Below, one piece after another: positions 3,151 through 25,601 of a DNA stretch of 57,367 nt. The stretch is from Prorocentrum cordatum (lineage: Eukaryota): contig CAUYUJ010000034.1 in assembly GCA_963575745.1 (NCBI GenBank), forward strand, positions 62,001 through 119,367. The letters are read 5' to 3'. Both the position numbers and the translations under genes were made by a program. The stretch's first letter is position 1, and each line of letters begins with the position of its first letter. The notes under the pieces are model-generated. The model did not search any database and was not told the origin of the DNA. It saw nothing but the letters and a program-made list of their open reading frames with translations.

Positions 3151-3363
3151 GAAACGGCCGATCCCGCCCGTCTGCTTTTTCGCAGTAAAAGGTACCCGAT
3201 CGAGCTGAGATCAAGATGGCGAGCGGGAACAATATCGAATATCACGGGAAAAAACTAGAGCTCAAAAGAATTGAGGAATTTCGAGAACAAAATTGTTTGA
3301 ACCGACAAAAACTCGCCAAAAGGTCCGTCGAGATTTTTCTTGGCAACTAGCTCTCCAGCGCAA

Positions 3364-3786
3364 CTGGGAACCGGCGGTAAGCCGTCAACCAGGTTACCAC
3401 CGCCGGGCATCTCGTAGAGCTCTTTTCTTGCACAGGCTCTTCGGAACACATGAAAGAAGCTTCTACAGCAAGAGTTGACGATTTTTCAGTTTTCGTCCAC
3501 AGTCGGTTCCTCCAAGTGTTTTCATAGTAATACAGCCGCTAGAGTAAGAAATTTAACCAGCAGGTGGGTCATATCTGTCTACAGGGAATGAAAATCTCAC
3601 GTCTGAAAACGACTTTCAAAATTTTGACTTCTTTTTTTTTTAATACAAAAAAAAAAAAAAAAAAAAAAAAAAAAACACAACGACCCCAGGTTACTGCTAC
3701 ATTGTCTCTTTTCGTCGGGCCGGCCAACTAGCTGCACTCTGCGCCCGGATTCCTCTTAGCTCTTTAGCGAAGAGCTCTAGGAGGCA
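3364..3786 (-). mobile_element. Family C short element containing a T10/A29 tract
   Basis: CTGGGAACCGGCGG hairpin end at 3364; degenerate right subTIR AGCTCTAGGAGGCA at 3786, after which the host X cap resumes (TTACCCTTAAG). Confidence 0.7.
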
Positions 3787-5046
3787 TTACCCTTAAGCTT
3801 CCAGCCGTAACTTGCTAAGGGAAGCTCTACGAGTTATTCCTCTAGCTCATCGAGAACGAAGAGCTCTACGAGGTACGAAGAGCTCTGCGAGATACTCTTA
3901 AGCTTGCTGGCACCGGCGGTGAACCGTCAACCTGGTGACCGCCGGGAACTTCGTAGAGCTTCTCCCACGGGTGAGAGTGCTCAGAGTCGACGAAGAGAGC
4001 TTCTGGAGGCATTTCTCAAAAGAATTGAACATTATTTTTTTTCATGTCGACATGAAGTTGGTTCCCGCAAGTGCTTTGATAGTAAAAAGGCGCATACAGA
4101 GCTCATTCAAAGACGCAGAGGCCCTCACAGTCGTCTACAGCTGCGAAAAATCTGGTTTCTCAAAATGAATGGTCAAATATTGTTCACATCTCAGCAAAAC
4201 CGACCCCAAGTTATCACTTTGTCCATTCTGGCCAGATCGACCAACTGGGCGCCGGCGGTAAACCGTCAACCTTTCTTAGCGCCGGGAGACTCGTAGAGCT
4301 TCCTGACCATATATAATGTTAAAAAAATGAGAGAACGAATAATTCTTCAGCCCGAGCGATTCCAGACCTCTCGATGCAACAGCCGAACGTCCCTGATGCT
4401 TCTGGATCGTTTTCTGAGTACTAGCTCGTAGCTATCCCACGATCATATCGAGTCAGTTTCTGTGCGTATCAGCTCTGTAGCTATCCTACAGCCCGAATTA
4501 CGTGCGAAAATCGACAGCACCTCGCAAGACAACTCGATCAATACGAATAGGTTCGCGAACCAAGCTCGAGTACCAGACCGAGTTCAGACCTCTAAATGCG
4601 ACAGTCAGACGCGCCTGATGTCTCCAAATCGATTCCTGCGATAACCAGCCCTGTAGCCGCCCTGCAAGTGTAGAAAACCGACAGCGCCTCTATAACTCGA
4701 CCATACGAATAGTTTCGCGGACCTAGCTCGGGCAGCAGACCAAGTTCAGAGCTCTGGATGCAACAGACAAACGCGCCTCATCATTTTAAATCGGTTTCTG
4801 AAAGTATCAGCTCTGTAGCTGTCCTATAGCTCTCAAGTTAAGTTCAAAAACCGACAATGCCTGTCGAGATGACTGAAAACGGTCGATCCCGCCTGCCTGC
4901 TTTTTGGCAGTAAAAGAGACCCGATCGAGCTGAGATCAAGACGGCGAGCGGAAATAAGATCGAAAATAATGAAAAAAATACTAGAGCTCAAACAAATTGA
5001 GGAATTTCGAGAAAAAATGGGCGCCGGCGGTAAACCGTCAACCTGG

Positions 5047-5307
5047 TTTTCTTTGAGTTTGAGTCAGGGCGCGGACAGCTGTGACAGCTGAGCCCTAAGA
5101 CTCCCAAACGGAGCACAGGGTAGCTAGAGAAGGCACCTCTTATCATCACACTGCCGAGCCACTGAGGCATAGGCATCGGAATAGGATGCAGGAACAAGGA
5201 AAAGGATGCAACACAACATGTGAGAATGCAAAGGTGTTGGAACAGGTTAGAGAATGGTGTAAGAGCTGGTTGAAACGCTACCCAAAACGTGTTCCACGGC
5301 CAGGGAG
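5047..5307 (-). mobile_element. Short retroposed insert (SINE or 5'-truncated LINE 3' end) in a terminal hairpin
   Basis: Flanked by ACCTGG (5041-5046, 5308-5313); A-rich minus-strand tail CTCAAACTCAAAGAAAA; homologous to 8280-8564. Confidence 0.8.
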
Positions 5308-5737
5308 ACCTGGCTACCGCCGGGGACCTCGTAGAGCTCTTGTCTGGCCCAGCTCCTCAGAACACGTGAAGCAAGCTTAAGCGAGAGCCAAACAACTCAA
5401 AAAAAAATCGGTCGCGTAAAATGGTCTTGCGGCTTAGCTCGATGCCGAAGAGCTCTGCGAGGTATGTTCAACCGACCAAAAGTCGGCGAAGGTCGGTCGA
5501 GATTTTTCTTACCAACTGGCACCGGCGGTGAACCGTCAACCTGGTCTGCGGAGTCTGCGTAGGCCGATTCGAGCTCCCTGGAGAGCAGGCCAGGACACAG
5601 AGAAACCTAACCAGCGGAGCTGTACAGATATACACAGCGAAGCTGAAAAAGAAAGTACAAGTGCACAAACAGCGAAGCTGTAATGCACAAATATACAATA
5701 CACGAGAATGCAGCTCAAAGATTGTAAGATTGAAAGC

Positions 5738-5963
5738 AATGCGAGACCATGCAGTAACCACATATAGCGATTACCGTCTCAGCACCACTGAAAATAAAAG
5801 CAGTGAGAGACCATACAGTAACCACTGGTTTATACAGCGATTACCGTCTCAACACCACTGAGACAAACACAATACTAACAACTAAAATGACGAGTACACT
5901 TCAAAGTAATGCGAGACCATGCAGTAACCACATATAGCGATTACCGTCTCAGCACCACTGAAA
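5738..5963. repeat. Three ~55-bp direct repeats inside the 1.2-kb insert
   Basis: GAGACCATGCAGTAACCAC..ATAGCGATTACCGTCTCAGCACCACTGA at ~5738, ~5805 (variant) and ~5908. Confidence 0.85.
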
Positions 5964-6227
5964 GACCATGCACGTGAAACACAACGAATTTGCGGTCGAC
6001 TGTGCACAGAGTCAGGCAAGACACCCACCACTCTTTGAGCGGGAGTGGGCACATGCAAAACTCTTATTCCGAACAAAGTGAAGATCACGCGGAGCTCTTA
6101 TACCAACATACGCGCATGTCCGACACACACAGCATGGCAAGAGCCAACGCAAACACAAAGTCCGAAATATGTCATAACAACCCGCGGTAAGACAAGAGTC
6201 GTATGCTCACGTCAAATGTGTGATAAA

Positions 6228-6336
6228 TGAATGTCTGATAACGCACTCAAGAAGTAACTCTCGGAAAACTGAATGTCTGATAACGCACTCAGTATCTTGA
6301 ATCACCTGCATAACTGAATGTCTGATAACGCACTCA
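6228..6336. repeat. Three 22-bp direct repeats with 20- and 23-bp spacers
   Basis: TGAATGTCTGATAACGCACTCA at 6228, 6270 and 6315. Confidence 0.9.
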
Positions 6337-8279
6337 AGTATCTTGAACTCTGATCGATACGATTCAAAGAAAAAATGAAAACAGGCACGCCGATACAATG
6401 CAGAGAACCTCAATCTCAAGATACTCCAATGTCACAGAACTGTCAAAGTACCTCAATGTCAAAGAATACACACGTGTGCAAAAGCAATAATGGAGAAAGC
6501 GCAAGCAGGCAGCACAAACAAGTACAAAGCGACGACAGCGGCCTATGCGTTGAAGTCAGTCCCACTTCTGATGCCAAACAGAGCTGGCCTCCAGCATCTA
6601 TCGTCTGTCGGCCCAAGGAGAGAAGGTCGTCGCAGCCGACGAAGTACCCGCATGCATTGCACGGCCCGCCCGCGCGCACACGGCCGCCCAGGGGGCAGCC
6701 TGAGGAGACAGGCTTGAGGAAGCCCCCGACGGGCCAGGCCACCGCTGAGATCCCCGAGGAGGGACAGCAGCAACCTGGTCACCGCCGGGAACCTCGTAGA
6801 GCTCCTTTCACGCGCGAGAGTGCTAATAGTCGAAAGAGAGAGCTTATGGAGGCATTTCTCGAAAAATTGAACATTGATTTTTTTCATGTCGAGATGAAGT
6901 TGATTCCTCCAAGTGTTTTGATAGTAAATGTGTACCTACAGAGCTCATGTTAAGACGCAGAGGCCCTCATGGTCGTTTACAGGTGCGGAAAATCTGCTTT
7001 CTTAAAATGAATTGTCAAATATCTTTCAAGTCTGAGCAAAACCGACCCAAAGTCACCACTTTGTCCTTTCTGGTCGGGTCGACCAACTAGCGGCGCCGGA
7101 ATTCCTCTAGCTCATCGATAACTGGGCGCCGGTGGTAAACCGTCAACCTTTCTTACCGCCGGGGGCTCGTAGAGCTTCCTGACAATATCTAATGTGGAAA
7201 ATGCATAGAACGAATAATTTTTCAGCCCAAGTGATTTCAGACCTCTCGATGCAACAGCCGAACGCCCCCGATGCTTCTGGATTGTCTTCTTTACGAGCTC
7301 TGTATACAGCCCGAGCTACGTGCGTAAATCGCCAGCACCTCTCAAGATGACTAACAAAACAAATAGTTTGGCAACCCAGCTCGAGTATCAAACCGAGTTC
7401 AGACCTCTGAATGCGACAGGCGGACGCGTCTGATGTCTGCGAATCGACTCCTGTGATTACCAACCCTGCAGCCCCCTACAGCCCGAGTTACGTGCGTAAA
7501 CCGACAGCACCTCTCAGGATGACTCGAACAATACAGTGGTTTCGCGGACTAGTTCGGCCAGCAGACCGAGTTCCGAGCTCTGGATCGCGCCTGATGTCTT
7601 CAAATCGATTCCTGTGACCACCAGCACTGTAGCCTCAACCCAGCCCGAGTTGAGTGCAGAAAACCGAGAGCACTTCTCAAGATGACTCGAACAATACGAA
7701 CAGTTTCGCGATTCTAGATCGAGCAGCAGACCGAGTTCAGAGCTCTGGATTCAACAGACAAATGCGACTGATGATTTTGAATCGGTTTCTGTAAGTATCA
7801 GCTCTGCAGCTGTCCTATAGCCCGAGTTAAGTACAGAAAACCGAGAGCGTCTGTCAAGATGACCCAAATAATTAGCTTTGCAGACCTAGCTCGGCTAGCA
7901 GACCGACTTCAGACCTCTAGATTCAACAGACGAACGCGCCTGATCATTCTGAATCGATTAGCTGTGCTCACCAGCTCTGTAGCTGTCCTGAAGCTCGAGT
8001 TATCTTCAGAAAACCGTCATCGCGTGTCAAGATGGCTTGAAACAGCCGATCCCGCCTGCCTGCTTTTTGGCAGTAAAAAGTACCCGATCAAGCTGAGCGC
8101 AAAATGGCGAGCGGGAATAAGATCGAATATCATGGGAAAAATACTAGAGCTCAGACGAATTCTTGAATTTCGAGAACAAAATTTTCAACCGACCAAAACT
8201 CAGTCGAGATTTTTCTTGCCAACTAGCTCTCCAGCGCCCCGGAATTACTGGGAACCGGCGGTAAACCGTCAACCAAGTT

Positions 8280-8564
8280 TTTTTTGAGTTTGAGTCAGGG
8301 CGCGGACAGCTGTGACAGCTGAGCCCTAAGACTCCCAAACGGAGCACAGGGTAGCTGGAGAGGGCAACTCTTATCATCACACTGCCGAGCCACTGAGGCA
8401 TAGGCAACGGAATAGGATGCAGGAACAAGGAAAAGGATGCAATACAACATGTGAAAATGTAAAGGTGTTGGAGAGCTCCAAGCAAGATGAAATGAGTCAG
8501 CTGCTTGGATGAAAGATGCTACCCAAAATGTGCTCCACGGCCATACAGAGCCGTTGTGCTGCAA
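8280..8564 (-). mobile_element. Short retroposed insert (same family as 5047-5307) in a family C hairpin
   Basis: 11-bp TSD TCAACCAAGTT (8269-8279, 8565-8575); oligo(A) tail on the minus strand; 5' end differs from the 5047 copy. Confidence 0.85.
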
Positions 8565-11193
8565 TCAACCAAGTTACCGCCGGGCACCTCGTAGAGCTCT
8601 TTGCGCTCCTCGGAACACATAAGGGGAGCTTCTGAAGCGAGAGCCGAAAAACTCGAAAAATCATAATTTTTTCGGTTCTCATCCAAAGCCGGTTGCTCCA
8701 AGTGTTTGTATAGTAATACTGCACCTACAGACCTGAGAATTTGACTGGCAGACGCGGCATAACCCACTACAGGTGCGAAAAATCTGCTTTCTCAAAATGA
8801 ATTGTCAAATATCTTTCAAATCTTAGCAAAACCCACCCAAAGTTGTTACATTGTCTCTTTTCGTCGGGTCGGCCAACTGGGCGCCGGCGGTAAACCGTCA
8901 ACCTTCCTTACCGCCAGGGGACTCGTAGAGCTTCCTGACAATATATAATGTGGAAAAAATGCATAGAACGAATAGTTTTTCAGCCCAAGTGATTTCAGAC
9001 CTCTCGATGCAACAGCCGAACGCCCCCGATGCTTCTGGATTGTCTTCTTTGCGAGCTCTGTAGCTCTCCTACAGCCCGAGTTACGTACGTAAAGCACCTC
9101 TCAAGATCACTCTAACAAAACGAATACAACCCAGCTCGAGTATCAAACCGAATTCAGACTCCAACAGGCGGACGCGTCTGATGTCTGCGAATCGACTCCT
9201 GTGATTACCACCCCTGCAGCCCCCTACAGCTCTGGATTCGACAGGCAGACGCGCCTGATGTCTACAAATCGATTATTGTGACTACCAGCACTGTAGCCCC
9301 CCTACAAGCAAAGTTTAGTACAGAAAACCGACAGCACCTGACTCGAACAATACGAATAGTTTCGCAATTCTAGATCGGGCAGCAGACCGAGTTCAGAGCT
9401 CTGGATTCAACAGACAAATGCGACTGATGATTTTGAATCGGTTTCTGTAAGTATCAGCTATGTAGCTGTAGCTCGAGTTAAGTAAACAAAACTGAGAGCG
9501 TCTGTCAAGATGACTTGAATAATACAAATAGGTTTGCGGACCTAGCTCGGCTAGCAGACCGAGTTCAGACCTCTAGATTCAACAGGCGAACGCGCCTGAT
9601 CATTCTGAATCGATTAGCTGTGCTTACCAGCTCTGCAGCTGTCCTAAAGCTCGAGTTATCTTGAGAAAACCGTCATCGCGTGTCAAGATGACTTGAAACG
9701 GCCGATCCCGCCTGCCTGCTTTTTGGCAATAAAAGGTACCCGATCGAGCTGAGCTCAAAATGGCGAGCGGGAATAAGATCGAATATCATGGCAAAAAATA
9801 CTAGAGCTCAAACGAATTGTTGAATTCCGAGAACAAAACTGTGAGCCGGCGGTAAACCGTCAACCAGATTACCGCCGCGAGCCTCGTAGAGCTCTTTTCT
9901 TGCACGGCACTGCTAGAACACGTAGCAGGAGCTTTCCTGATACGCGAGCTGAAAACTCGAAGAAGTAAGTTTCTTTAGTTGTCACCCAACGACGGTTCCG
10001 CCAAGTGTTTTGATAGTAATGCTGCAGCTACGGACCTGAAAATTCATTGGAAGACGCGAAACAACCCACTACAGGTGCGAAAAATACCGGCTCTTAGAAC
10101 GAATGTTCAAATCTCTTACAAAGTTTGTCCAACCGACCCGAAGTTCGCACATTGTCCGTCGCAGCAGGGTCGGCCAACAGGGCGCCGGCGGTAAACCGTC
10201 AACCTTTCTTACCGCCGGGGACTCGTAGAGCTTCCTGACAATATATCATGTGGAAAAAGTGCAGAGAACGAATAGTTTTCAGCCCAAGCGATTTCAGACC
10301 TCTCGATGCAACAGCCGAACGCCCCCGATGCTTCTGGACTGTCTTCTTTACGAGCTCTGTAGCTCTCCTACAGCCCGCGTTACGTGCGTAAATCGACAGC
10401 ACCTGTCAAGATGACTCTGACAAAACGAACAGTTTGGGAACCCAGCTCGAGTATCAAACCGAGTTCAGACCTCTGAATGTGACAGGCGGACGCGTCTGAT
10501 GTCTGCAAATCGACTCCTGTGATTACCAGCCCTGCAGCCACCCTACAGCCCGAGTTACGTGCGTAAATCGACAGCACCTCTGATGATGACTCGAACAATA
10601 CAATAGTTTCGCGGACTAGTTCGGCCATAGCGAGTTCCGAGCTCTGGATTCGACAAGCAGACGCGCCTGATGTCTTCAAATCGATTCATGTGACCACCAA
10701 CTGTAGCCCCCCCCCCAGCCCGGGTTGAGTGCAGAAAACCGAGAGCACTTCTCAAGATAACTCGAACAATACGAATAGTTTCGTCTAGATCGAGCAGCAG
10801 ACCGAGTTCAGAGCTCTCGATTCAACAGACAAATGCGACTGATGATTCTGAATCAGTTTCTGTAAGTATCACCTCTGTAGCTGTCCTATAGCTCGAGTTA
10901 AGTACAGAAAACCAATAGCGCCTGTCAAGATGACCCGAATAATACGACTAGGTTTGCGGACCTAGCCTGGCTAGCAGACCGAGTTCAGACCTCTAGATTC
11001 AACAGGCGGACGCGCCTGATCATTCTGAATCGATTAGCTGTGCTTATCAGCTCTGTAGCTGTCCTGAAGCTCGAGTTATCTTCAGAAAACCGTCATCGCG
11101 TGTCAAGATGACTTGAAACGGCCGATCCCGCCTGCCTGCTTTTTGGCAGTAAAAGGTACCCGATCGAGCTGAGATCGAGATGGCGAGCGGGAA

Positions 11194-12395
11194 CTGGGCG
11201 CCGGCGGTAAAACCGTCAACCTTTCTTACCGCCGGGGGACTCGTAGAGCTTCCTGACAATACAAAATATGGAAAAGATGCAGAGAACGAATAGTTTTTCA
11301 GCCCCGGCGATTTCAGACCTCTCGATGCAACAGCCAAACGCCCCCGATGCTTCTGGAGCGTCTTCTTTACGAGCTCTGTAGCTCTCCTACAGCCCGAGTT
11401 ACGTGCGTGAATCGACAGCACCTCTCAAGATGACTCTAATAAAACGAATAGTTTGGCAACCCAGCTCGAGTATCAAACCGAGTTCAGACCTCTGAATGCG
11501 ACAGCTGGACGCGTCTGATGTCTGCGAATCGACTCCTGTGATTACCAGCCCTGTAGCCCCCCTTACAGCCCGAGTTAAGCAGAAAACCGACAGCACCTCT
11601 CAGGATGACTCGAACAATACGAACAGTTTCGCGAACCGAGTTCGGGCAGCCCAGTTCGAGCTCTGGATTCGACAGGCGGACACGCCTGACGTCTTAAAAT
11701 CGATTCCTGTGACCATCAGAAATGTAGCCCCCCCCCCAGCTCGAGTTGAGTGCAGAAAACCGAGAGCACTTCTCAAGATGACTCGAACAATACGAATAGT
11801 TTCGCGATTCTAGATCGGGCAGCAGACCGAGTTCAGAGCTCTGGATTCAACAGACAAATGCGACTGATGATTCTGAATCGCTTTCTGTAAGCATCAGCTC
11901 TGTAGCTGTCCTATAGCTCGAGTTAAGTACAGAAAACCGAGAGTGCCTGTCAAGATGACTCGAATAATACGAATAGGTTTGCGGACCTAGCTCGGCTAGC
12001 AGACCGAGTTCAGACCTCTAGATTCAACAGGCGAACGCGCCTGATCATTCTGGATCGATTAGTTACCAGCTCTGTAGCTGTCCCAAAGCTCGAGTTATGT
12101 TCAGAAAACCGCCATCGCGTGTCAAGAGGACTTGAAACGGCCGATCCCGCCTGCCTGCTTTTTGGCAGTACAAGGTACCCGATCGAGCTGAGATCAAGAT
12201 GGCGAGCGGGAATAAGATCGAATATCATGGGAAAAAATACTAGAGCTCATTGTTGAATTTCGAGAACAAAATTTTCAACCGACCAAAAGTCAGCAAAAGG
12301 TCCGTCGAGATTTTTCTTGCCAACTAGCTCTCCAGCGCCCCGGAATTACTCCTGAGCTTCCAGCAATAACTTGCTAAGGGGAGCTCTACGAGTTA
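11194..12395 (-). mobile_element. Complete family A element (1202 bp)
   Basis: Flanks GCGGGAA | TAAGATCGAAT rejoin to the parent GCGGGAATAAGATCGAAT with no TSD; hairpin end, monomers and X cap are present. Confidence 0.85.
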
Positions 12396-14308
12396 TAAGA
12401 TCGAATATCATGGGAAAAAATACTAGAGCTCAAACGAATTGTTGAATTTCGAGAACAAAATTTTTAACCGACCAAAAGTCAGCAAAAGGTCCGTCGAGAT
12501 TTTTCTTGCCAACTAGCTCTCCAGCGCCCCGGAATTACTCTTAAGCTTCCAGCAATAACTTGCTAAGGGAAGCTCTACGAGTTACTAGCTCCGCCCCGCG
12601 CCCTCTAGCGCATCGATGCCGAAGAGCTCTACGAGGCACTGGGCGCCGGCGGTAAACCGTCAACCTTCCTTACCGCCGGGGGACTCGTAGAGCTTCCTGA
12701 CATTGTATAATGTGGAAAAAAATCAAGAGAACGAATAGTTTTTCAGCCCAAGCGATTTCATACCTCTCGATGCAACAGCCGAACGCCCCCGATGCTTCTG
12801 GATTGTCTTCTTTGCGAGCTCTGTAGCTCTCCTACAGCCCGAGTTACGTGCGTACAAAACGAATAGTTTGGCAACCCAGCTCGCGTATCAAACCGAGTTC
12901 AGACCTCTGAATGCGACAGGCGGACGCGTCTGATGTCTACGAATCGACTCCTGTCACCACCAGCACTGTAGCCCACCTATAGACCGAGTTAAGTGCAGAA
13001 AACCGACAGCACCTCTCAAGATGACTCGAACAATACGAACATTTTCGCGATTCTCGATCAGGCAGCAGACCCAGTTCAGAGCTCTGGATTCAACAGACAA
13101 ACGCGACTGATGATTCTGAATCGATTTCTGTAAGTATCAGCTCTGTAGCTGTCCTATAGCTCGAGTTCAGTACAGAAAACCGAGAGCGCCCTGTCAAGAT
13201 GACATAATACGAATAGGTCTGCGGAGCTAGCTCGGCAAGCAGACCGAGTTCAGACCTCTGGATGCAACAGACGAACCGCGTCTGATCATTCTGAATCGAT
13301 GAGGTGTGCTGACCAGCTGTCCTATATCTCGAGTTCAGTCCAATATACCGACAGCCCATATCAAGATGACTCGAAACGGCCGATCCCGCCGGGACACTTT
13401 TTGAATAAAAAGGACCCGATCGAGCTGAGATCAAGATGGCGAGGGGAAATAACATCGAATGTCACGAGAAAAAATACTAGAGCTCTAACGAATGTTCAAT
13501 TTTTGTTGAGAACAAAATTTTGAACCGACCAAAAGTCACCTATAGGTCAGGCGAGATTTTTCTTGCCAACTAGCTCTCTAGCGCCCCGGAATTACTCTTA
13601 AGCTTCCAGCCATAACTTGCTAAGGGAAGCTCTACGAGTTACTAGCTCTCCAGCGCCCCGGAATTACTCTTAAGCTTCCAGCAATAACTTGCTAAGGCAA
13701 GCTCTACAAGTTACTGGGCGCCGGCGGTAAACCGTCAACCTTGGTTACCGCCGGAGGAGCTGCCTCACAATAACAATGTGAAAAGAAGATTGATGAGAGC
13801 GAATAATTTTTCAGCCCAAGCGATTTCAGACCTCTCGATGCAACAGCCGAACGCCCCCGACGCTTCTGCATTATCTTCTCTACGGGCTCTGAAGCTCTCC
13901 TACCGCCGGAGTAAGGTGCGTAAATCGACAGCACCTCTCAAGATGAATCGACACAATACGAATAGTTTGGCAAACCTAGCTCGAGTATCGGACCGATTCC
14001 AGACCTCTCAATGCGACAGAAGGACGCGTCTGATGTCTCTGAATCGATTTCTGTGATTACCAGCCCTGCAGCCCCTCTAGAGCCCGAGTTTAGTGCAGAA
14101 AACGGACAGCACCTCTCAGGGTGACTCGAACAATAGGAATAGTTTTGCGGAGCTAATTCGAGCAGCAGACAGTTCCGAGCTCTGAATTCGACAGGCGGAC
14201 GCACCTGATGTCTCCAGATCGATTCCCGTGACTGCAAGTACTGTAGCTCCCCTACAGCGCGAGCTGAATGAAGACCCAACAGCACCTCGCAAGCTGACTC
14301 GTATAATG

Positions 14309-16208
14309 CTTGGTAGCGTCCAAAACCCGGAGAGCGACTGGCGCCGGCGGTGAACCGTCGGCGGTCACCGCCGGGAGCCTCGTAGAGCTCCTAGCACGCG
14401 TAAGAGTGCTAAGGATCAAACGAGAGGGCTTCTGGAAGCATTTCTCGAAAAAAGAGCAAACATCATTTTTGTCATGTCGACATAAAGTTGGTTGCGCCAA
14501 GTGTTTTGACAGTAAAATTGCATCTAGAGAGCTCATATTCAGACGCTCAGGCCCTCATAGTCATCTACAGGTGCGAAAAATCTGCTTTCTCAAAATAAGG
14601 GTCAAAGATCTTTAAAATATTTGCAAAACTACCCAAAAGTTGTCACTTTGTCCTTTCTGGCCGGGTCGGCCAACTGGGCGCCGGCGGTAAACCGTCAACC
14701 TTTGTTACCGCCGGGGGACTCGTAGAGCTTCCTGAGAACATATAATGTCGAAAAAATTACACTGAAAAAATAGTTTCTTAGCCCAAGCAATTTCAGAACT
14801 CTCGGATGGAACAGCCGAACGCCCCCGATGCTTCTGGATTGTCTTCTGTACGATCTCTCTAGGTCCTACAGCCTGAGTTACGTGCGTAAATCGACAGCAC
14901 CTCTCAATATGATTCGAACAATTCGAATAGTTTGGCAAACCTAGCTCGAGTATCAGACCGAGTTCAGACCTCTGCATGCGACAGGCACACGCGTCTGATG
15001 TCTCTGAATCGATTCCTGTGATTACCAGCTCTGCAGCCCCCCTACAGCCCGAGTCAAGTGCAGGAAACCGACAGCACCTCTCAGGATGACTCGAACAATA
15101 CGAATAGTTTGGCAGACCTAGTTCGGGCAGCAGACAGAGTTCGGAGCTCTCGATCCAAAATGCACACGCGCCTGATGTCTCTGAATCGATTCCACTCATT
15201 ACCAGCCATGCAGCCCCCCGACACCCCGAGTTAAGTGCAGAGAACGGACAGCATCTCTCAAGATGACTCGAACAATACGAATAGTTTTGCAATTCTAGAT
15301 CCGGCAGCAGACCGAGTTCAGAGCTCTGGATCCAACAGACAACGGCCACTGATGATTCTGAATCAGATTCTGTACGCATCAGCTCTGTAGCTGTCCTGTA
15401 GCTCGAGTTAAGTTCAGAAAACCGAGAGCGTCTGTCAAGATGACTCGAATAATACAAATAGGTTTGCGGACCTAGCTCGGCTAGCAGACCGAGTTCAGAC
15501 CTCTGGGTTCAACAGGCGAACGCGCCTGATCATTCTGAATCGATTAGTTGTGCTTACCCGCTCTGTAGCTGCCCTGAAGCTCGAATTATCTCGAGAAAAC
15601 CGTCACCGCGTGACAGGATGACCCAAAACGGGCGATCCCGCCGCAGTGCTTTTTGGCAGTAAAAGGTACCCGATCGAGCTGAGATCAAGACGGCGAGCGG
15701 GAATAAGATCGAATATCACGGGAAAAAATACTAGAGCTCTAACGAATGGTTGAATTCCGAGAACGAAATTTTCAACCGACCAAAAGTCATCAAAATGACC
15801 GTCGAGATTCTTCTTGCCAACTAGCTCTCCAGCGCCCCGGAATTACTTAAGCTTCCAGCAAAAACATGCTAAGGGAAGCTCTACGAGTTACTGCTCCACC
15901 CCGCGCCGGAATTCCTCTAGCTCATCGTCGATGTCAAAGAGCTCTACGAGGTAACGGAGAGCGAAGAAACCCTTTGGAGACGGAAAATGTTTCCTGGAGA
16001 GCTCTGGGAAGCTTCCGGAACGCTTTCACGCGTGCCTGCATGCGTGCAGGCACGCGTGGAAGCTTGCCGGAAGCTCTCCCGGACCCGTTGCCGGGCCAGG
16101 CGAGTCTCTGCGAGGACTGTGGACCGCCGTGGAGGAGCTCCTGGCGGGCACCACCACCGTCGGGCTTCTAATCTTGAACCCTTTAGCTCTCGGCGGGCTC
16201 TCCGGGAA
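14309..16208. mobile_element. Family E GC-rich palindromic element, split by nested B (14338-15953) and A (14674-15890) elements
   Basis: Left end CTTGGTAGCGTCCAAAACCC, right end CTCTCCGGGAA. The outer flanks rejoin a 177-bp monomer (GACTCGTATAATG | CAAATAATTTCG). Confidence 0.65.
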
Positions 16209-16522
16209 CAAATAATTTCGTGATTCTAGATCGGGCAGCAAACCGAGTTGAGAGCTCTGCATTCAACGAACGAACGCGACTGATGATTCTGAATCGATTT
16301 CTGTAAGCATCAGCTCTGTAGCTGTCCTATAGCTCGAGTTCACTACAGAAAACCGAGAGCCTGTTAAGATGACTCGAATAATACGAATAGGTTTGCGGGC
16401 CTAGCTCGGCTAGCAGACCAAGTTCACACCTCTGGATCCAACAGACGAACGCGTCTGATCGTTCTGTTTGGAATAGGTGTGCTTACCAGCTCTGTAGCTG
16501 CCCTAGAGCTCGAGTTAGGTAC

Positions 16523-17410
16523 TGGGTTGGGTGTTGGGGTCGGCTACACAGGGCGCGTGCGCCCTAGCCGTGCAGAGTCCCTAGGGTCCCTCACGCCCTC
16601 TCAACCTCTTCGGGGTTGGAGGCACGAGGATCTCAGAGATAATCTGCCGAACACCTTGGAGCAGGCGTTCACAAGCTGTGAGCTCGCTATCTAGAACAGT
16701 GGCCCCCAGAGGGAGTAAAGAAGCCCCCTGGAAAACTCGTCGCCAGTGGTTGTCCCCAAATGAGACCTCCACATAGCAACCTAGAGCAGAGCCTTCAACA
16801 CTCACGCCACCGTCCCATCCTCCACGGATACGTTTGATACAATGTCTCTGTTGTCGCAAATATCTGAAGTCAATCCATCTTCCCGTCCGTCCCCTCCTCG
16901 CCTCCTAGGTCAACTCATCCGCAACACAATTGAACTCTCTGTAGATATGCTTCCACGGATCCGTCCCTACAGTGGCAACCTGATGTCGTAATCCTCAGCA
17001 AGTTGATTCATATCGTTTTGTAGACCATGCACTCTCCTGCGGTACGAACGATCACGGCATTCCCAGATCCCTCGGGCCCAGTTCACCACACACATACTAT
17101 CACCTGTCATTTCAACCAATAATGAGCCCTCCGGGCCTTCCTGCCAGACAGCTTCGTTGTTATATCCGTGGGCAATCCTACGAGCGAGCCTGTCGGAGTC
17201 CTCAGGGGAGTCCCACGTATCCACAGGACAAGGAGCACAGGGCGGTTTCCTGAAGATGGGTTCCCATCGAGGCTGTATTTCGTCATGCACGCAACTACAT
17301 TCCACCAGTCCGTCGCATTCCACTTGATGCTGAACCAGCGTAAATTACCACTCGCCGCCAGCATAAGACAATGCCAGCTGTCAGTGCTTGCATGCGCTCT
17401 CCCTCCCACC
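16523..17410 (-). pseudogene. Degraded retroelement 3' fragment with RNase H-like motifs
   Basis: Minus-strand translation gives VEMTGDSMCVVNW...[frameshift ~16968]...WKHIYREFNCVADEL*[16905-16907]...IRGGWDGG...ATVLDSELTACERL. It ends in a CCAACACCCAACCC tail within a monomer. Confidence 0.75.
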
Positions 17411-18014
17411 TCCAAAACCCGGAGAGCAAAGAGAACAAACACACACCGGAAAATCTTCCTGGCAAGCCCACGGAAGCTCGCGTGAAGCTCTTCTGGGGCT
17501 CTGGGGGGCTCCCCGGCAGCGCTTCCGAAGCGCTGCCAGAAACGCTTCCACGCGCGCCTGCACGCGAGCGGGCACGCGTGGAAGCTTGCCGGAAGCTCTC
17601 CCGGACACGTTGCCGGCTCAAACGAGCCGCTGCTGGGATTCTGGAGCGGCGGAGATGCGCTGCTGGCGGGCACCACCACCGTCCGGCTTCTAATCTCAAA
17701 CCCTTTAGCTCTCAGCGAGCTCTCCGGGAATAAAATACCGACAGCGCGCATGAAGATGACACGAGAAATATTCCCTGGAGAGAGCTGGGGGGCCTCCCCG
17801 AAGCGCTTCGGAAGCGCTGCCAGGAACGCTTCCACGCGTGCCTGCACGAGTGCAGGCACGCGTGGACGCATGCCGGAAGCGCTCCCGGACCCGCTGCGAC
17901 CCCACACGAACTGCTGCGAGGATTCCGGAGCGGCGGAGATGCGCTGCTGGCGGGCACCACCACCGTCCAGCTTCTAATCGAAAACCCTCTAGCTCTCAGA
18001 GAGCCCTCCGGGAA
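17411..18014. repeat. Two tandem ~300-bp family E units
   Basis: Each runs from TTCCTGG to CTCCGGGAA around a CCACGCG(C/T)GCCTGCACG..GGCACGCGTGGA quasi-palindrome. Confidence 0.75.
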
Positions 18015-18040
18015 AAAGGCCGTCGAGATTTTTTTGCCAA

Positions 18041-19258
18041 CTGGGCGCCGGCGGTAAACCGTCAACCTGTCTTACCGCCGGGGGACTCGTAGAGCTTCCT
18101 GACAATATATAATGTCGAAAAAAATTGCAGAGAACGAATTGTTTTTCAGCCCAAGCGATTTCAGACCTCCCGATGCAACAGCCAAACGCCCCCCGATGCT
18201 TCTGGATTGTCTTCTGCACGAGCTCTGTAGCTCTCCTACAGCCCGAGTTACGTGAGTCAATCGACAGCACCTCTGAAGATGACTCGAAGAAAACGAATAG
18301 TTTGGCAAACCCAGCCCGAGTATCAGACCGAGTTCAGACCTCTCAATGCGACAGGCGGACGCGTCTGATGTCTCCGAATCGATTCCTGTGATTACCCGCC
18401 CTGCAGCCCCCCTACAGTCCGAGTTAAGTGCAGGAAACCGACAGCATCTTTCAGGATGACTCGAACAATACGAACAGTTTCGCGAACCGAGTTCGGGCAC
18501 AGAACCGAGTTCCGAGCTCTAGATTCCACAGGCGGACGCGCCTGATGTCTGCAAATCGATTGCTGTCACCACCACTACTGTAGCCCCCCAACAGCCCGAG
18601 TTAAGTGCAGAAAACGCACAGCACCTCTCAAGATGACTCGAACAATACGAACAGTTTCGCGATTCTCGGGCAGCAGACCGAGTTCAGAGCTCTGCGTTCA
18701 ACAGACAAGCGCGACTGATGATTCTCAATCGGTTTCTGTAAGTATCAGCACTGTAGCTGTCATATAGCTCGAGATACGTACAGAAAACAGAGAGCGCCTG
18801 TCAAGATGACTCGAATAATACGAATAGGTTTGCGGACCTAGCTCGGGTAGCAGACCGAGTTCAGACCTCTGTTCGGAACAGCCGAACGCGCCTGATCATT
18901 CTGAATCGATGAGGTGTGCTGACCAGCTATGTAGCAATCCTATATGTCGAGTTAGGTTCAGTTTTCCGACAGCGCGAATCAAGATGACTCGAAACGGCCG
19001 ATCCCGCCGCAGTGCTTTTTGGCAGTAAAAGGTGCCCGATCGAGCTGAGATCAAGATGGCGAGCGGGAATAAGATCGAATATCACGGGACAAAATATTAG
19101 AGCTCTAACGAATGGTTGAATTTCGAGAAGAAATTTTTTAACCGACCAAAATCCCTCCAAATGTCCGTCGAGATTTTTCTTGCCAACTAGCTCTCCAGCG
19201 CCCCGGGATTACTCTTAAGCTCCCAGCAATAACTTGCTAAGGGAAGCTCTACGAGTTA
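18041..19258 (-). mobile_element. Complete family A element (1218 bp)
   Basis: Flanks TTGCCAA | CTAGCTCTCC rejoin the parent; both termini are intact. Confidence 0.85.
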
Positions 19259-20572
19259 CTAGCTCTCCAGCGCCCCGGAATCCTTTTCAGCTTCCAGCAA
19301 TGACATGCTCAGGGAAGCTCTACGAGTTACTGGAAACCGGCGGTAAACCGTCAACCAGGTTACCGCCGGGCACCTCGTAGAGCTCTTCTCTTGCGCAGCG
19401 CTTCTCGGAGCACATGAAGGAAGCTTCGAGCAGAAAAATTCGGAAAAACACTATTTGTTGGTTTTGATCCAAAGTCGGTTCCCTCAAGTCTTTTGATAGT
19501 AATACTCTAGCTACAGACTGAGAATTTTACTGGCAGACGCGGCGCAACCCACTGCACGTGAGAAAAATGTTGGTTCTCAAAACGAATTTCAAAATCTTGT
19601 ATAAAGTGAAAAAAAACGACCCCAGGTTACCACATTGTCTCTTTTGTTCGGGCCCGCCAACTGGGCGCCGGCGGTAAACCGTCAACCTTTGTTACCGCCG
19701 GGGGACTCGTAGAGCTTCCTGATAATATTTAATGTTTAAAAAAATGCAGAGAACGAGTAGTTTTTCAGCCCAAGCGATTTCAGACTTCTCGATGCGACAG
19801 CCGAACGCCCCCGATGCTTCTAGATTATATCCTGTACGGGCTCTGTAGCTCTCCTACAGCCGGAGTTACAAAATCGACAGCATCTCTCAAGATGACTCGA
19901 ACAATACGAATAGTTTGGCAAACCTAGCTCGAGTATCAAACCGAGTTCAGACCTCTGAATGCGAGAAGCGGACGCATCTGATGTCTCCGAATCGATGCCT
20001 GTGATTACCCGCCCTGCAGCCTCCCTACAGCCCGAGTTAAGTGCAGAAAACCGGCAACACCTCTCAGGATGACTCGAACAATACGAATAGTTTGGCGGAA
20101 CTAGTTCGGGCAGCAGACCGAGTTCAGAGCTCTGGATTCGACAGACGAACGCGACTGATGATTCTGAATCAGTTCATGTTAGTATCAACTCTGTAGCTGT
20201 CATATAGCTCGAGTTTAGTACAGAAAACCGAGAGCGTCTGTCAAGATGACTCAAATAATACGAATAGGTTTGCGGACCTAGCTCGGCTAGCAGACCGAGT
20301 TCAGACCTATGGATTCAACAGACAAACGCGCCTGATGATTCTGGATGCGATAGCTGTGCCCACCAGCTCTGTAGCTGCCCTACAGCTCGAGTTAAGTACA
20401 AAATACCGACAACGTATGAAGATGACTCGAAACGGCCGATCCCGCCGGGACGCTTTTTGGCATTGAAAGCTACCCGATCGAGCTGAGATCAAGATGGCGA
20501 GCGGGAATAAGATCGAATATCATGGGAAAAAATACTAGAGCTCGAACGATTTGTTGAATTTCGAGAACAAAA

Positions 20573-21364
20573 CTGGAACCGGCGGTAAACCGTCAACCAA
20601 GTTACCGCCGGGGCTCTCGTAGAGCTCTTTCTCGCACGGCGCTGCTCGATACACATGCAGATAGAGTCTGAAAGAAGACTCCCTAAAACTCGAAAAATCA
20701 CGTTTATTTTTAATCCAAAGACGGTTCCGCCAAGTGTTTTGATAGCAATACTGCACCTACATACCTGAGAATCCACTTACGAACGCACAATAACCCACTA
20801 CAGGTGCGAAAAAAACCGGATCTCAAAACGAATGTTCAAATCTCTCACGAAGTTCGTCCAACCGACCCAAAGTTCGCACATTGTCCGTCGGGGCCGGGTC
20901 GGCCTACTAGCTGCACCCCGCGCCCGAATTCCTGTAGCTCATCGATGCCGAAGAGCTCTACGAGGTACTGGGAACCGGCGGTAAACCGTCAACCAAGTTA
21001 CCGCCGGGCACCTCGTAGAGCTCTCTTCTTACACAGCGCTCCTCCGAACACGTGAAGGAAGCTTCTGAAGCGAGAGCCGAAAAATTCGAAACATGACGAT
21101 TTTTCGGTTTTCATGCAGTGGGTTCCTCCAAGTCTTTTGATAGTAATACTGGACCTAGAGCCATACAAAAATTTACCAGCAGGTGCGCCATAGCTTACTA
21201 CAGAGAATAAAAATCTCACTTCTAAAAACGAACTTCAAAATTTTGCATAAAGTGAAAAACACCGACCCCAGGTTACCACATTCTCTCTTTTCGTCGGGCA
21301 AGCCGACTAGCTCACCCTGCGCCCGAATTCCTCTTAGCTCTTTGCCGAAGAGCTCTACGAGGTA
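20573..21364 (-). mobile_element. Head-to-tail pair of family C elements (20573-20967, 20968-21364)
   Basis: Outer flanks GAGAACAAAA | TTTTCAACCGA rejoin exactly; internal junction is GAGGTA|CTGGGAACC. Confidence 0.85.
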
Positions 21365-21436
21365 TTTTCAACCGAACAAGTCACCAAAAGGTCCGCCGAG
21401 ATTTTTCTTGCCAGCTAGCTCTCCAGCGCCCCGGAA

Positions 21437-21833
21437 CTGGGAACCGGCGGTAAACCGTCAACCAAGTTACCGCCGGGCACCTCGTAGAGCTCTCTTCTTA
21501 CACAGCGCCCCTCCGAACACGTGAAGGAACCTTCTGAAGCGAGAGCCGAAAAAATCGAAAAATGACGATTTTTCGGTTTTCATACAATGGGTTCCTCCAA
21601 GTGTTTTGATAGTAATACTGGACCTAGAGCTATAGAAAGTTTACCAGCAGGTGCACCATAGCTTACTGCAGGGAATAAAAATCTCACTTCTAAAAACGAA
21701 CTTCAAAATTTTGCATAAAGTGAAAAACACCGACCCCAGTTTACCACATTCTCTCTTTTTGTCGGGCCGGCCAACTAGCTTCACCCTGCGCCCGAATTCC
21801 TCTTAGCTCTTCGCCAAAGAGCTCCACGAAGTA
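21437..21833 (-). mobile_element. Complete family C element (397 bp), close copy of 20968-21364
   Basis: Flanks CCCCGGAA | TTACTCTTAAG rejoin exactly. Confidence 0.85.
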
Positions 21834-22815
21834 TTACTCTTAAGCTTCCAGCAATAACTTGCTAAGGGAAGCTCTACGAGTTACTAGGAATTCCTCTTGG
21901 CTCTTTGGTGAAGAGCTCTACGAGGTACTAGCTCTACCCCGCGCCGGAAATCCTCTAGCTCATCGATGCCGAGCAGCTTTACAAGGTACTCTGCCAGCAA
22001 TAACTTGCTAAGGGAAGCTCTACGAGTTACAAAAAGCTCTACGAGGTACTATCTCTCCAGCGCCCCGGAATTACTCTAAAGCTTCCAGCAACTGGCTCAG
22101 GGAAGCCCTGCGAGTTTCTAGCTCCACCTCGCGCTGGAATTCCTCTGGCTCATCGATAACGAAGAGCTCTACGAGGTACTAGCTCAGGGGAAGCTCCACA
22201 AGTTATTGTTGACCGACCAAAAGGCACCAACGGGTCCGTTGCGACTGGGCGCCGGCGGTAAACCGTTAACCTTTCTAAGCGCCGGGAGACTCGTAGAGCT
22301 TCCTGACCATATATAATGTCCAAACAAATGAGAGAACGAATAGTTGTTCAGCCCGAGCGATTCCAGACCTCTCGATGCAACAGCCGAACGTCCCTGATGC
22401 TTCGTGATCGTTTTCTGTGCGTACTAGCTCGTAGCTATCCAGCCCGAGCTCAATACAGAAAAGGGACAAAATCTGCGAACGTGACTTGAAGAATACGAAT
22501 ACTTTTGCGGACCTAGCCTGAGTTGCAAACCAAGTTCAGACCTTTGGATGCAACAGACGAACGCGCAGGATGATATCGAGTCAGTTTCTGTGCGTATCAG
22601 GCTCTGTCGCTATCCTACAGCCCGAATTACGTGCTAAAATCGGCAGCACCTCGCAAGACAACTCGATCAATACGAATAGGTTCGCGAGCCTAGCTCGAGT
22701 ACCAGACCGAGTTCAGACCTTTAAATGCGACAGGCGGACGCGCCTGATGTCTCCAAATCACTGGATGCAAGAGACAAGCGCGCCCCATCGTTTTGAATCG
22801 GTTTCTGAAAGTATC

Positions 22816-23296
22816 GCCTGTCGAATCCAGAGCTCGGAACTCGGTCTGATGAACTAGTCCGCGAAACCATTGTATTGTTCGAGTCATCATGAGAGGTGCT
22901 GTCGATTTGCGCACGTAGCTCGGGCTCTAGGGGGGCTGCAGGGCTGGTAATCACAGCAGTTGATTCGCAGACATCAGACGCGTCTGCCTGTCGCATTCAG
23001 AAGTCTGAACTCGGTTTGATACTCGAGCTGGGTTGCCAAACTATTCGTTTTGTTAGAGTCATCTTGAGAGGTGCTGTCGATCTACGCGTGTAACTCGGGC
23101 TAAGGGAGAGCTACAGAGCTCGCGAAGAAGACAATCCAGAAGCATCGGGGACGTTCGGCTGTTGCATCGAGAGGTCTGAAATCGCTTGGGCTGAAAACTA
23201 TTCGTTCCCTGCATTTTTTCCACATTATATATTGTCAGGAAGCTCTACGAGTCCCCCGGCGGTAAGAAAGGTTGACGGTTTGATGCCGGCGCCCAG
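22816..23296 (+). mobile_element. Truncated family A element in the opposite orientation
   Basis: Reverse complement of monomers and head, ending AGCTCTACGAG..hairpin..GCCCAG|TT. Confidence 0.8.
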
Positions 23297-23913
23297 TTCA
23301 GAGCTCTGGATGCAAGAGACAAACGCGCCTCATCGTTTTAAATCGGTTTCTGAGAATATCAGCTCTGAAGCTGTCTTGTAGCTCAAGTTGAATTCAAAAA
23401 CCGACAACGCCTGTCGAGGTGACCCAAAACGGTCGATCCCGATTTGTGGCAGTAGAAGATACCCGATCGAGCTGAGATTAAGACGGCGAGCGGAAATGAG
23501 GTCGAATATAATGGAAAAAAAAAACTAGAGCTCAAACGAATGGAGGGAGAACAAAATTTTCAACCGACCAAAAGTAAGCAAAAGGTCCGTCGAAAGTATT
23601 ATTGCCAACTTGCTCTCCAGCGCCCCGGAATTACTCTTAAGCTTCCAGCAACTAGCTCAGGGAAGCTTTACGAGTTATTTTTCTTGCCGACTAGCTCAAG
23701 CCTGCGCCCGAATTCCTCTTAGCTCTTTGCCGAAGAACTCTAGGAGGTATATTACTCTTAAGCTTCTAGCAACTAGCTAAGGAAAGCTCGACGAGTAATT
23801 CCTCTAGCTCATCGATGCCGAGCTCTACGAGATACTAGCTGCACCCCGCGCCGGAATTCTTCTAGCTCATCGCATTCCTCCAGCTCATCGATGCCGAAGA
23901 GCTCTACAAGGTA

Positions 23914-25202: not shown

Positions 25203-25601
25203 CTGGCGCCGGCGGTGAACCGTCAACCTGGTCACCGCCGGGAACATCGTAGAGCTCTTTTCACGTGTAAGAGTGCTCAGAGTCGAAAGAGAGAGCTTCT
25301 GGAAGCATTTCTCGAAGAAGGGAAAAATTGATTTTTTTCGCGTCGACATGAAGATGGTTCCCCCAAGTGTTTTGATAGTAAAAGTGCGCCTACAGGGCTC
25401 ATACTAAGACAGAGAGGCCCTCATAGTCGTTTACAGGTGCGAAAAATCTGCTTTCTCAAAATGAATTGACAAATATCTTTCAAAAAATCGCAAAACCACC
25501 CCAAAGTTGTCACATTGTCCGCCTCGGCCGGCTGGGCCAACTAGCTTCACCCCGCGCCGGAATTCCTCTAGCTCATCGATGCCGAAGAGCTCTACGAGGT
25601 A
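25203..25601 (-). mobile_element. Complete family B element (399 bp)
   Basis: Flanks CTCAAAA | TGAATTGTC rejoin exactly; hairpin arms GGCGGTGA/TCACCGCC. Confidence 0.85.

Follow-up and report, generated by a model that had tools for sequence, protein, structure and literature searches.

INTRODUCTION

Helitron2 transposons and the non-autonomous Helentrons known as HINE/DINE-1 share a layout in which a 5′ subterminal inverted repeat is combined with a partner repeat and a 3′ stem-loop, as set out in the available portions of four reports (PMC4067079, PMC7492417, PMC5148889, PMC13085455). In Fusarium, Helitron2 copies with two to five 5′ termini have been ascribed to self-insertion in the sections of two papers open to us (PMC5148889, PMC13342296). 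Here we analyse a stretch of 57,367 nt from Prorocentrum cordatum (GenBank assembly GCA_963575745.1, contig CAUYUJ010000034.1, positions 62,001 to 119,367, forward strand; ‘the window’), a piece of eukaryote-like repeat DNA largely made up of three families of short elements with a similar layout. The locus is a Russian-doll stack that has grown by nested insertion of small mobile elements into earlier copies. It is an extreme variant of the known Helitron2-type self-insertion and not a new kind of element.

The closest described case is that of FoHeli1-5, Helitron2 elements of Fusarium oxysporum, which like the elements of the window have asymmetric terminal inverted repeats, hairpins at both ends and copies with stacks of short 5′ termini (each <200 bp). 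As presented in the parts of their description available to us, FoHeli1-5 differ in being autonomous and 5-11 kb long, in carrying few stacked termini, and in having a nested origin that was inferred; in the window, three non-coding families insert across one another, eight short 5′-terminal pieces (‘caps’) lie in a single pile, nine levels are in view, and each cap can be matched to its body. HINE/DINE-1 elements of insects, mites and oysters prefer T-rich targets, and the accessible parts of their descriptions mention no self-homing. The likeness to them that we describe is one of layout, and insertion in the window clusters within 183 nt of the 5′ terminus of resident copies, in one orientation. 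The telomere-targeting Helitrons of Paramecium aurelia also combine a strict target with an absolute orientation bias and build repeat-rich regions, but their target, according to the portion of that report at hand (PMC13085455), is telomeric repeats and their transposase forms a clade of its own, whereas the target here is the element’s own 5′ region. Truncated Helitron arrays of plant centromeres, with many 5′ ends and a single 3′ end, have been explained as rolling-circle concatemers (Xiong, Dooner and Du 2016, as relayed in the available text of PMC5148889 and PMC12628747). Many 5′ ends are common to both situations, but in the window every 5′ end is matched by a 3′ end of its own, and the two series mirror each other. 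DIRS-1 of Dictyostelium, Zepp of Chlorella, twintrons and nested miniature inverted-repeat transposable elements likewise prefer their own kind as a target and form clusters, by other transposition chemistries. In the literature that we consulted, whose supplements may hold more, we found no nest of comparable depth or site-specificity, no cross-insertion of three non-coding families at fixed steps, and no paper that prints the letters of the hairpin sequence described below.

RESULTS AND DISCUSSION

Three element families and their ends

BLAST tiling assigned 44,792 of the 57,367 bases to three related, non-coding families. Family A is about 1.2 kb long (~1,218 nt; reference copy 18041-19258) and has at its centre a 177-nt tandem repeat, present in 3.7 copies in the reference copy (18221-18870); families B (~399 nt; reference copy 25203-25601) and C (~397 nt; reference copy 20968-21364) are shorter. 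On the + strand each copy begins with CTGG(G)CG/AA-CCGGCGGT(A/G)AACCGTCAACC...ACCGCCGG, a hairpin with a 10-bp stem and a folding energy of -12 to -13.9 kcal/mol (z -1.7 to -2.3). In family B an A-T pair of this stem has become G-C on both arms, a compensatory change. Just after the hairpin comes a subterminal repeat of 13-15 nt, the reverse complement of which closes the element. The resulting asymmetric inverted repeat measures 15 nt in family A, where ACTCGTAGAGCTTCC pairs with GGAAGCTCTACGAGT, while in families B and C ACCTCGTAGAGCTC pairs with GAGCTCTACGAGGT. The + strand terminus reads GGAAGCTCTACGAGTTA in A and GAAGAGCTCTACGAGGTA in B and C. This opposite end, called hairpin-free below for its lack of the first hairpin, folds into a second one that spans its first 45-48 nt.

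Read on the minus strand, following the Helitron convention, the elements start at their 5′ end with TA(A/C)CTCGTAGAGC, a subterminal inverted repeat that lies within the 5′ hairpin, and finish with the partner repeat GCTCTACGAG, the hairpin with the 10-bp stem and ...CCCAG, followed by a T of the host. In the Helitron frame, what a preliminary description of this DNA (made from the letters alone) had called hairpin ends are 3′ ends, and its caps are 5′ termini; this identification and the Helitron2/Helentron-type layout go beyond that description. The hairpin motif CCGGCGGTRAACCGTC, allowing at most one mismatch, has 53 matches in the window, 53/53 of them on the + strand, and none in 100 shuffled sequences. 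A looser scan yielded 55 element starts.

Pairing of ends and depth of the nest

Starts and ends were listed mechanically, the ends being typed as A or B/C from the 8 nt that precede the end core and the starts from the subterminal repeat, and a plain stack was then run over all of them. The parse of 3364-23677 gave 22 pairs, 21 of which were type-consistent as computed. The pair opening at 13714 has a degenerate subterminal repeat but is of family A by head and body, and this one hand correction brings the agreement to 22/22; were closers of the two types placed in random order, a complete match would have a chance of 1/C(22,11) = 1.4e-6. For the whole window, 36 of 41 pairs matched in type at first and 41/41 after hand corrections, namely five type calls (a variant A subfamily and the start at 13714), and the addition of one start (a 5′-truncated B at 43319, apparent from the tiling) and of one end (23796, which has a 1-nt deletion). 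Shuffled closer types gave at most 35/41 in 100,000 trials and never reached the observed count.

The preliminary description had placed hairpin ends at 3907, 4245, 5516, 7122, 8248, 8877, 9839, 10178 and 11194, and closings at 12395, 12584, 12638, 21927, 21988, 22029, 22048, 22117 and 22178, with the last element opened being the first closed. All of these were recovered, the hairpin ends in the families given to them, and the sequence that the interrupted host needs does follow each closing. Its depth of about nine levels is correct for the series from 3907 to 11194, but the nest probably goes deeper, as further closings would belong to openers upstream. Likewise, an element does open at 8877 and a closing is present at 21927; the interval is, however, occupied by three abutting elements (8877-13713, 13714-19329 and 19330-21927) and not by one.

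We number the elements of 3907-22178 from E1 to E20 by their starts, and call the outermost host E0. Within this interval every 5′ piece was matched to its own body and hairpin end, and all 20 elements are paired. The deepest ones in view, E10 (from 11194) and E14 (from 14674), stand at level 9 counted from E1. Eight closings, at 3836, 3875, 3894, 22205, 23749, 23796, 23834 and 23913, have no start in the window. If their openers lie upstream, the deepest elements would stand at level 15-16. These closings follow the logic of the others: an A host resumes after 22205, 124 nt from its end, and once more after 23677, to be followed by tails of C, A, B and B. Nesting of the same sort is found in the second half of the window, where 15 elements are left open at the window end, a number that is an upper bound because lost ends would inflate it.

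Restoration of interrupted hosts

For 3895-22205 an insertion tree was built and all children were removed from each host, which left 16 host junctions to be scored against intact copies that are not themselves hosts, abutting children being treated as one junction. A strict, ungapped test (20+20 nt, at least 70% on each side, shift of 3 or less) found 11/16 junctions restored; shuffled pairings gave a mean of 3.5 and a maximum of 9, and 0/20,000 reached 11. In a gapped test, which called for one high-scoring segment pair to an intact copy that crosses the junction by at least 12 nt on each side, 14/16 junctions were restored, against a mean of 5.1 and a maximum of 12 for shuffled pairings (0/20,000 reached 14). 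By either test iterative excision thus beat all shuffles, in a comparison that had been set beforehand. The lengths agree as well: with children excised, the B/C elements measure 399, 393, 399, 375, 395, 397 and 397 nt (the first four being hosts) versus 395-400 nt for intact copies, and subtraction of the inserts in their hairpin loops takes E4 to ~391-399 nt and E6 to ~394-403 nt. No target duplication was seen in the hosts at restored junctions.

Target sites and orientation

The left flanks of the 55 starts were mapped to A, B or C where at least 15 of 20 nt matched. This was the case for 49, and all of them lie, on the + strand, 0-183 nt from the hairpin-free (5′) end of the host. The proposal that the array grows by inserting into itself is borne out by this count, with 49/55 insertion points in the last 0-183 nt of another copy. 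Among the 49, 16 fall at CCAA|CTAG (59-73 nt from the end) and nine at the very end, and the rest at 47-55 nt (seven), 19-39 nt (five) and 83-183 nt (12). Of the six flanks that did not map, inspection by eye assigns four to near-ends or variant tails, and the other two are in X-type DNA (see below). In A hosts, 24/24 internal sites fall in the last 190 nt, a segment that holds 25.5% of the AA steps (probability 5.9e-15 under uniform choice). The flanking base is A (T on the element strand) at 54/55 starts, and the next base out is A at 36 and T at 13. On the element strand the favoured target, CTAG|TTGG, resembles the element’s own 3′ junction, CCAG|TT. When the host end is folded as single-stranded DNA, the sites at 26/27 nt (A) and 19 nt (B) come to lie in the terminal hairpin loop, and those at 47/50 nt (A) and 39 nt (B) at the foot of the hairpin.

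Ten pairs of elements in the window are joined end to end, and 3/10 of these junctions join different families. The neighbours E18 and E19 are 80.5% alike, compared with 75-82% for random B/C pairs, and the end-to-end A pair at 45455/46752 is 93.6% alike versus 88-95% among the remaining A pairs. End-to-end neighbours are thus independent insertions. E19 and E20 are 94% alike, and copies in equivalent positions differ by 5-25%.

BLAST also detected two inverted A fragments, at 22815-23296 and at about 43727-44007. The former keeps its hairpin end, which is followed by TT and lies in a 177-nt unit (CGAG|TTCAGAGC). Its position fits a rule by which the target strand sets the orientation.

Relatives in metagenomes

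In a metagenome set, at least 124 contigs contain the 20-nt hairpin core, of which we analysed 120 (L001-L120) with 105 distinct copies (5′ ends); the counts that follow apply to the matches listed. Families A, B and C cover a median of 6% of each of the 120 contigs, and most contigs therefore carry other bodies. The repeat motif lies within 40 nt of the hairpin core in 90/105 copies. The base 8 nt before the core is A in 99/105, with positions further out unconserved, which places the element boundary where it is in the window. Copies stand directly behind the end of another copy in 6/98 cases versus 0.4% in the control, and within 40 nt of a CTAGC tail in 12/98 versus 2.4%, 10 of these 12 reading CAACTAGC... 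as in the window. Contig L003 contains a closed insertion at a CTAG site and another start 21 nt later. The copies found behind other ends and CTAGC tails show that self-targeting is a tendency of the wider group, of which the window is the extreme case. Some metagenome copies adjoin ordinary genes, among them those for glutamyl-tRNA synthetase, pyruvate kinase and RNase HII.

The hairpin, including the letters of its loop, is kept in the 105 distinct copies although their bodies are unrelated. Three contigs (L070, L078 and L091) show a miniature element of ~100 nt that consists of little beyond the hairpin and two repeats. A search of viral contigs for the hairpin gave 0 matches. Sequencing runs that share words with the window are mostly marine, estuary and plankton metagenomes together with coded organisms; 24 were listed, none with half of the words.

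Element class and proposed mechanism

We consider it probable that the cluster consists of non-autonomous Helitron2/Helentron-type rolling-circle transposons (HINE/DINE-1-like) that were inserted into one another by a trans-acting transposase. The assignment to the Helitron superfamily is a structural one, suggested by architecture. The 5′ sequence can pair with a segment that directly precedes the 3′ hairpin, which is the asymmetric terminal inverted repeat expected of this group, and insertion follows the TT of Helentrons or the T(T/C) of Helitron2 without target duplication, with one exception (E13) that has a 10-nt repeat. Because the window contains no transposase gene, the elements are classed as non-autonomous and the class of the enzyme is one that we infer.

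Four other element types were considered. A canonical Helitron (HLE1) has 5′-TC, 3′-CTRR, a hairpin 10-12 nt from its 3′ end and an A|T target, while the ends here read TA(A/C)CTCG... and ...CCCAG with a T|T flank. A Crypton or att-type element would share a multi-base core with its target; here one base is common and the far-side flanks vary. For hammerhead retrozymes and Penelope-like repeats, Rfam gave 0 matches at gathering score in the whole window. Introners have GT...AG ends that act as splice sites, and the hairpin-side ends of the related metagenome copies are not AG.

In the mechanism that we propose, a transposase supplied in trans would insert new copies, all in the same orientation, into the first 0-183 nt behind the 5′ terminus of residents. 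Favoured spots would be CTAG|TTGG, the loop and the 3′ foot of the 5′ hairpin, and the terminus itself, the last giving rise to end-to-end pairs. Each insertion would split off the short 5′ piece of its host, and repeated hits into the newest copy would then gather the 5′ pieces to one side of the stack, in an order that mirrors that of the bodies on the opposite side. The enzyme may be an HUH Rep-helicase, and CTAG|T, like unpaired T steps in and beside the 5′ hairpin, may be chosen for its resemblance to the site that the enzyme cleaves at the element’s 3′ end (CCAG|T). The incoming copy might be attracted by DNA close to the resident 5′ end that is in hairpin form, or single-stranded when the resident is bound or unwound. 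Each hit would create new YAG|T steps at both junctions, which would explain the end-to-end pairs.

Several observations weigh against this reading. Two of the 16 junctions, those of E0 and E7, were unrestored even with gaps. For E0, only 12 nt of left flank are in view; its right side continues the subfamily tail CAA|CTAGCTCAGGG, an uninterrupted version of which lies at 23650-23677. For E7, the host is without exactly 52 nt between two hot sites, in line with the earlier remark that the flank after 12638 is incompletely restored: E11 starts there at once. Another three junctions are restored only if a loss of 11-20 nt, or a 10-nt repeat, is allowed beside the junction. The preliminary description had suggested that divergence from consensus be compared with depth, and the two show no significant trend (family A: Spearman -0.34, n=10, p=0.34); a child is less diverged than its parent in only 8/19 pairs. 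The pooled B/C consensus is a poor yardstick for this test, and for the A copies along the main chain the divergence does decrease (0.089, 0.046, 0.036, 0.016, then 0.029). On the element strand, 19/55 insertions are not T|T (T|A 13, T|C 4, T|G 2, against 36 T|T), and the 10-nt direct repeat around E13 in X-type DNA would be unexpected under the proposed mechanism. No Rep-helicase gene was found: none of the 68 window open reading frames (ORFs) of at least 110 aa reaches Pfam curated cut-offs, and the 28 scanned of 47 ORFs listed from the metagenome contigs (at least 200 aa) are host genes only. Contigs from four sequencing runs placed on 3300-22300 are all short and none spans the arrangement. 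They show very high depth of the families and joints found elsewhere (e.g. 14675->15893 and 5546->6788), and with regard to long-range order such short-contig data neither support nor contradict the nest.

The 52 nt lost in E7 (9838/13642) correspond to the span between two favoured steps, 124 and 72 nt from its end, and the loss lies at the contact of E8 with E11. A single integration that used two cleavage steps and dropped the intervening piece may account for the loss.

A far-reaching form of the mechanism would make these true self-homing transposons. The transposase, at the resident 5′ terminus, would expose or hold single-stranded DNA, cut YAG|T mimics in hairpin loops and feet and channel copies into the first ~190 nt in a fixed direction, providing both a programmed safe haven and an engine that makes orientation-locked, satellite-like arrays from nothing; a widespread, undescribed lineage of elements in marine eukaryotes would share the one 3′ hairpin, and a second-tier retro-element parasite would occupy the hairpin loop. 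We regard this extended version as tentative and rather doubtful.

Alternative explanations

The alternative that survives best is that the nest was partly copied as blocks, with nested composites or array segments being moved either in a transposition event that begins at an outer 5′ end and stops at the first 3′ end, or through segmental duplication. Chimeric mobilisation of this sort is proposed in the Fusarium work (in the available part of PMC5148889), the ~1.04-kb composite at 50.9-57.4 kb is present four to five times, and the likeness of E19 and E20 could be taken as a further sign of it. A mobilised chimera would, however, leave orphan caps, and the complete pairing of the 20 elements of 3907-22178 with their own bodies, together with the 5-25% difference between copies at equivalent places, makes block copying unlikely.

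We find it less plausible still that a tyrosine or serine recombinase, as in Crypton- or att-like systems, acted by conservative site-specific recombination between a circular form and a site in resident copies. Such a process would agree with the locked orientation, the repeated use of the same sites and the lack of duplication, and the end-to-end junctions do resemble circle junctions; but the far-side sequence varies (CTAG, TAAG, TTTT, CGAA, TTAC, CTCT, CTTG), and the one base common to the target and the joined ends is too little for a crossover core. The offset inverted repeat with a terminal hairpin is, moreover, the Helitron2/Helentron layout, and the Pfam scan of ORFs found no recombinase gene in the window.

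A third alternative is an assembly artefact of a highly repeated family; these families are hugely abundant in the sequencing runs, where word depths range from thousands to tens of thousands and no contig among the short-contig runs spans the region. Random mis-joins would nevertheless break the bracket order, yet 41/41 types match and 14/16 junctions restore; the difference between copies is enough for long reads to separate them, and independent metagenome contigs such as L003 contain small nests that are built alike. We therefore rate an artefact as very improbable. The weakest alternative, in which the termini were stacked by partial rolling-circle replication or by tandemisation and unequal crossing-over with no nested insertion, has a model in print (Xiong et al. 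2016, via the available text of PMC12628747 and PMC5148889) and could draw on the ten end-to-end junctions, but is already contradicted at this locus by caps that each come from a different family member with its own body in mirror order (A in B in A in B in A in C), by the heterotypic pairs, and by homotypic neighbours that are no more alike than non-neighbours.

Composition of the nest

All elements described here lie on the minus strand. The outermost, E1 (family B, 3907-22178), has its own parts at 3907-4244 and 22118-22178 (399 nt) and is split at CCAA|CTAG, 61 nt from the hairpin-free end. It contains E2 (family A, 4245-22117; own parts 4245-5016, 5465-5515 and 22049-22117), which in turn carries E3 126 nt and E4 72 nt from its end. 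E3 (5017-5464) is C-like; it has undergone an internal deletion, and a retro-type insert (about 5047-5307) occupies the loop of its hairpin. E4 (family B, 5516-22048; own parts 5516-5544, 6771-7121 and 22030-22048) is split by E5 19 nt from its end and has a loop insert at 5545-6770 with an 8-nt duplication, CAACCTGG. E5 (family A, 7122-22029; own parts 7122-8247 and 21989-22029) is split 47 nt from its end and shows an 11-nt loss located 4 nt beyond the junction. In E6 (family C, 8248-21988; own parts 8248-8277, 8565-8876 and 21928-21988), the hairpin loop contains an insert (8278-8564) with a duplication of 9 nt, and the CCAA|CTAG site is occupied by E7, E12 and E16 end to end.

The first of these, E7 (family A, 8877-13713; own parts 8877-9838 and 13642-13713), carries E8 and E11. 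E8 is C-like (9839-12638; own parts 9839-10177 and 12585-12638, 393 nt), and within it E9 (family A, 10178-12584; own parts 10178-11193 and 12396-12584), which is interrupted at 183 nt from its end, encloses the innermost element E10, an intact A of 1202 nt at 11194-12395 (level 9 from E1). E11 (family A, 12639-13641) abuts the end of E8. E12 (family A, 13714-19329), with its degenerate subterminal repeat, contains, at A position 606|607, X-type DNA in which E13 and E14 are found, and elsewhere unrelated DNA (16521-18013) and E15. E13 (family B, 399 nt own, 14338-15953) lies within the X-type DNA between 10-nt direct repeats and carries E14, an intact A of 1217 nt at 14674-15890 (level 9), the empty site of which is present in contigs of the sequencing runs (joint 14675->15893). 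E15 (18041-19258, 1218 nt) is the intact A reference, with its 177-nt repeat at 18221-18870. E16 (family C, 19330-21927; own parts 19330-19660 and 21884-21927, 375 nt) has lost ~20 nt just after CTAG. It holds E17 (family A, 19661-21883), into which E18 (20573-20967) and E19 (20968-21364) are inserted end to end 124 nt from the end and E20 (21437-21833) 50 nt from the end; these three are intact C copies.

The cap pile at 21834-22205 is made up of the 5′-terminal pieces, 19-69 nt long, of E17, E16, E6, E5, E4, E2, E1 and E0, in an order that mirrors that of the hairpin ends. An earlier pile at 3783-3906 consists of the ends of three elements that would open upstream (closing at 3836, 3875 and 3894) and then 12 nt of the host E0. 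In an outer pile at 23678-23913, four to five 5′-terminal pieces (closing at 23749, 23796, 23834 and 23913) probably belong to hairpin ends upstream of the window. The inverted A fragment at 22815-23296, on the + strand, is the sole one in this half of the window; its hairpin end, followed by TT, lies inside a 177-nt repeat unit.

Other DNA in the window

Retro-type inserts (5047-5307, 8278-8564 and 5545-6770) occupy the same hairpin-loop step, after CAACC(T/A)(G/A)G, in three elements. A separate duplication of 6-9 nt accompanies each insert and matches the loop variant of the host, so that the three loop insertions look independent. Two of them open with a run of T, and over 193 nt their likeness is 96%; the third has 94 nt (84%) in common with the 5′ end of an element at 1-2290 that has two ORFs on the minus strand and itself borders a B copy, immediately beyond the hairpin of that copy. 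The loop inserts are possibly a retro-element that targets the hairpin loop. On the minus strand, 3-2429 contains an ORF of 571 aa and, next to it, one of 237 aa that is truncated at the window start; the 571-aa ORF has a coiled-coil-like stretch, and the start of the 237-aa ORF may, by motif likeness, resemble an apurinic-type endonuclease. A non-LTR retrotransposon would have an apurinic-endonuclease or reverse-transcriptase domain; searches of Pfam, PDB sequences and 5.8 billion proteins gave no match for the minus-strand ORFs at 1-2429. A fold model of ORF 3-713(-) had a predicted local distance difference test score of 50, and the top Foldseek rows were AP endonucleases at E 0.17-1, which is not significant.

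A GC-rich unit of about 280-330 nt with an internal palindrome, here called X, is unrelated to A, B and C and occurs in both orientations (14308-14337 with 15954-16207, 17415-18013, 23914-24943 and 34119-34350). X-type DNA is the only non-self DNA here that has inserted B copies, and E13, in an X unit, is flanked by the 10-nt direct repeat CGGAGAGCGA, unlike every self-insertion. The block 16521-17414 within E12 is single-copy in the window, replaces A positions 918-1118 and has no Pfam match. Contigs from two other runs cover it, starting at 16521 and in one case ending at 17409, which indicates a discrete repeated unit elsewhere. At 50943-57367 a composite of ~1.04 kb occurs four to five times at 88-95% identity. 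It consists of a B-like head (1-338), a ~400-nt unit, a short A-like piece and a C-like tail, and is either a fourth, longer family or a higher-order repeat produced by duplication.

Implications

Published accounts explain stacked Helitron 5′ ends in two ways, by self-insertion or by partial rolling-circle replication. Because every stacked end at this locus is matched to its own body in mirror order, nested self-insertion can be read directly here and need not be inferred. The locus shows that the target of a Helitron-type element can be narrow and oriented and can lie within the element’s own terminus, and it offers a simple route from a dispersed transposon to long one-directional repeat arrays. 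The nest is a natural layered record for ordering insertion events, and the shared hairpin marks a large family in marine metagenomes.

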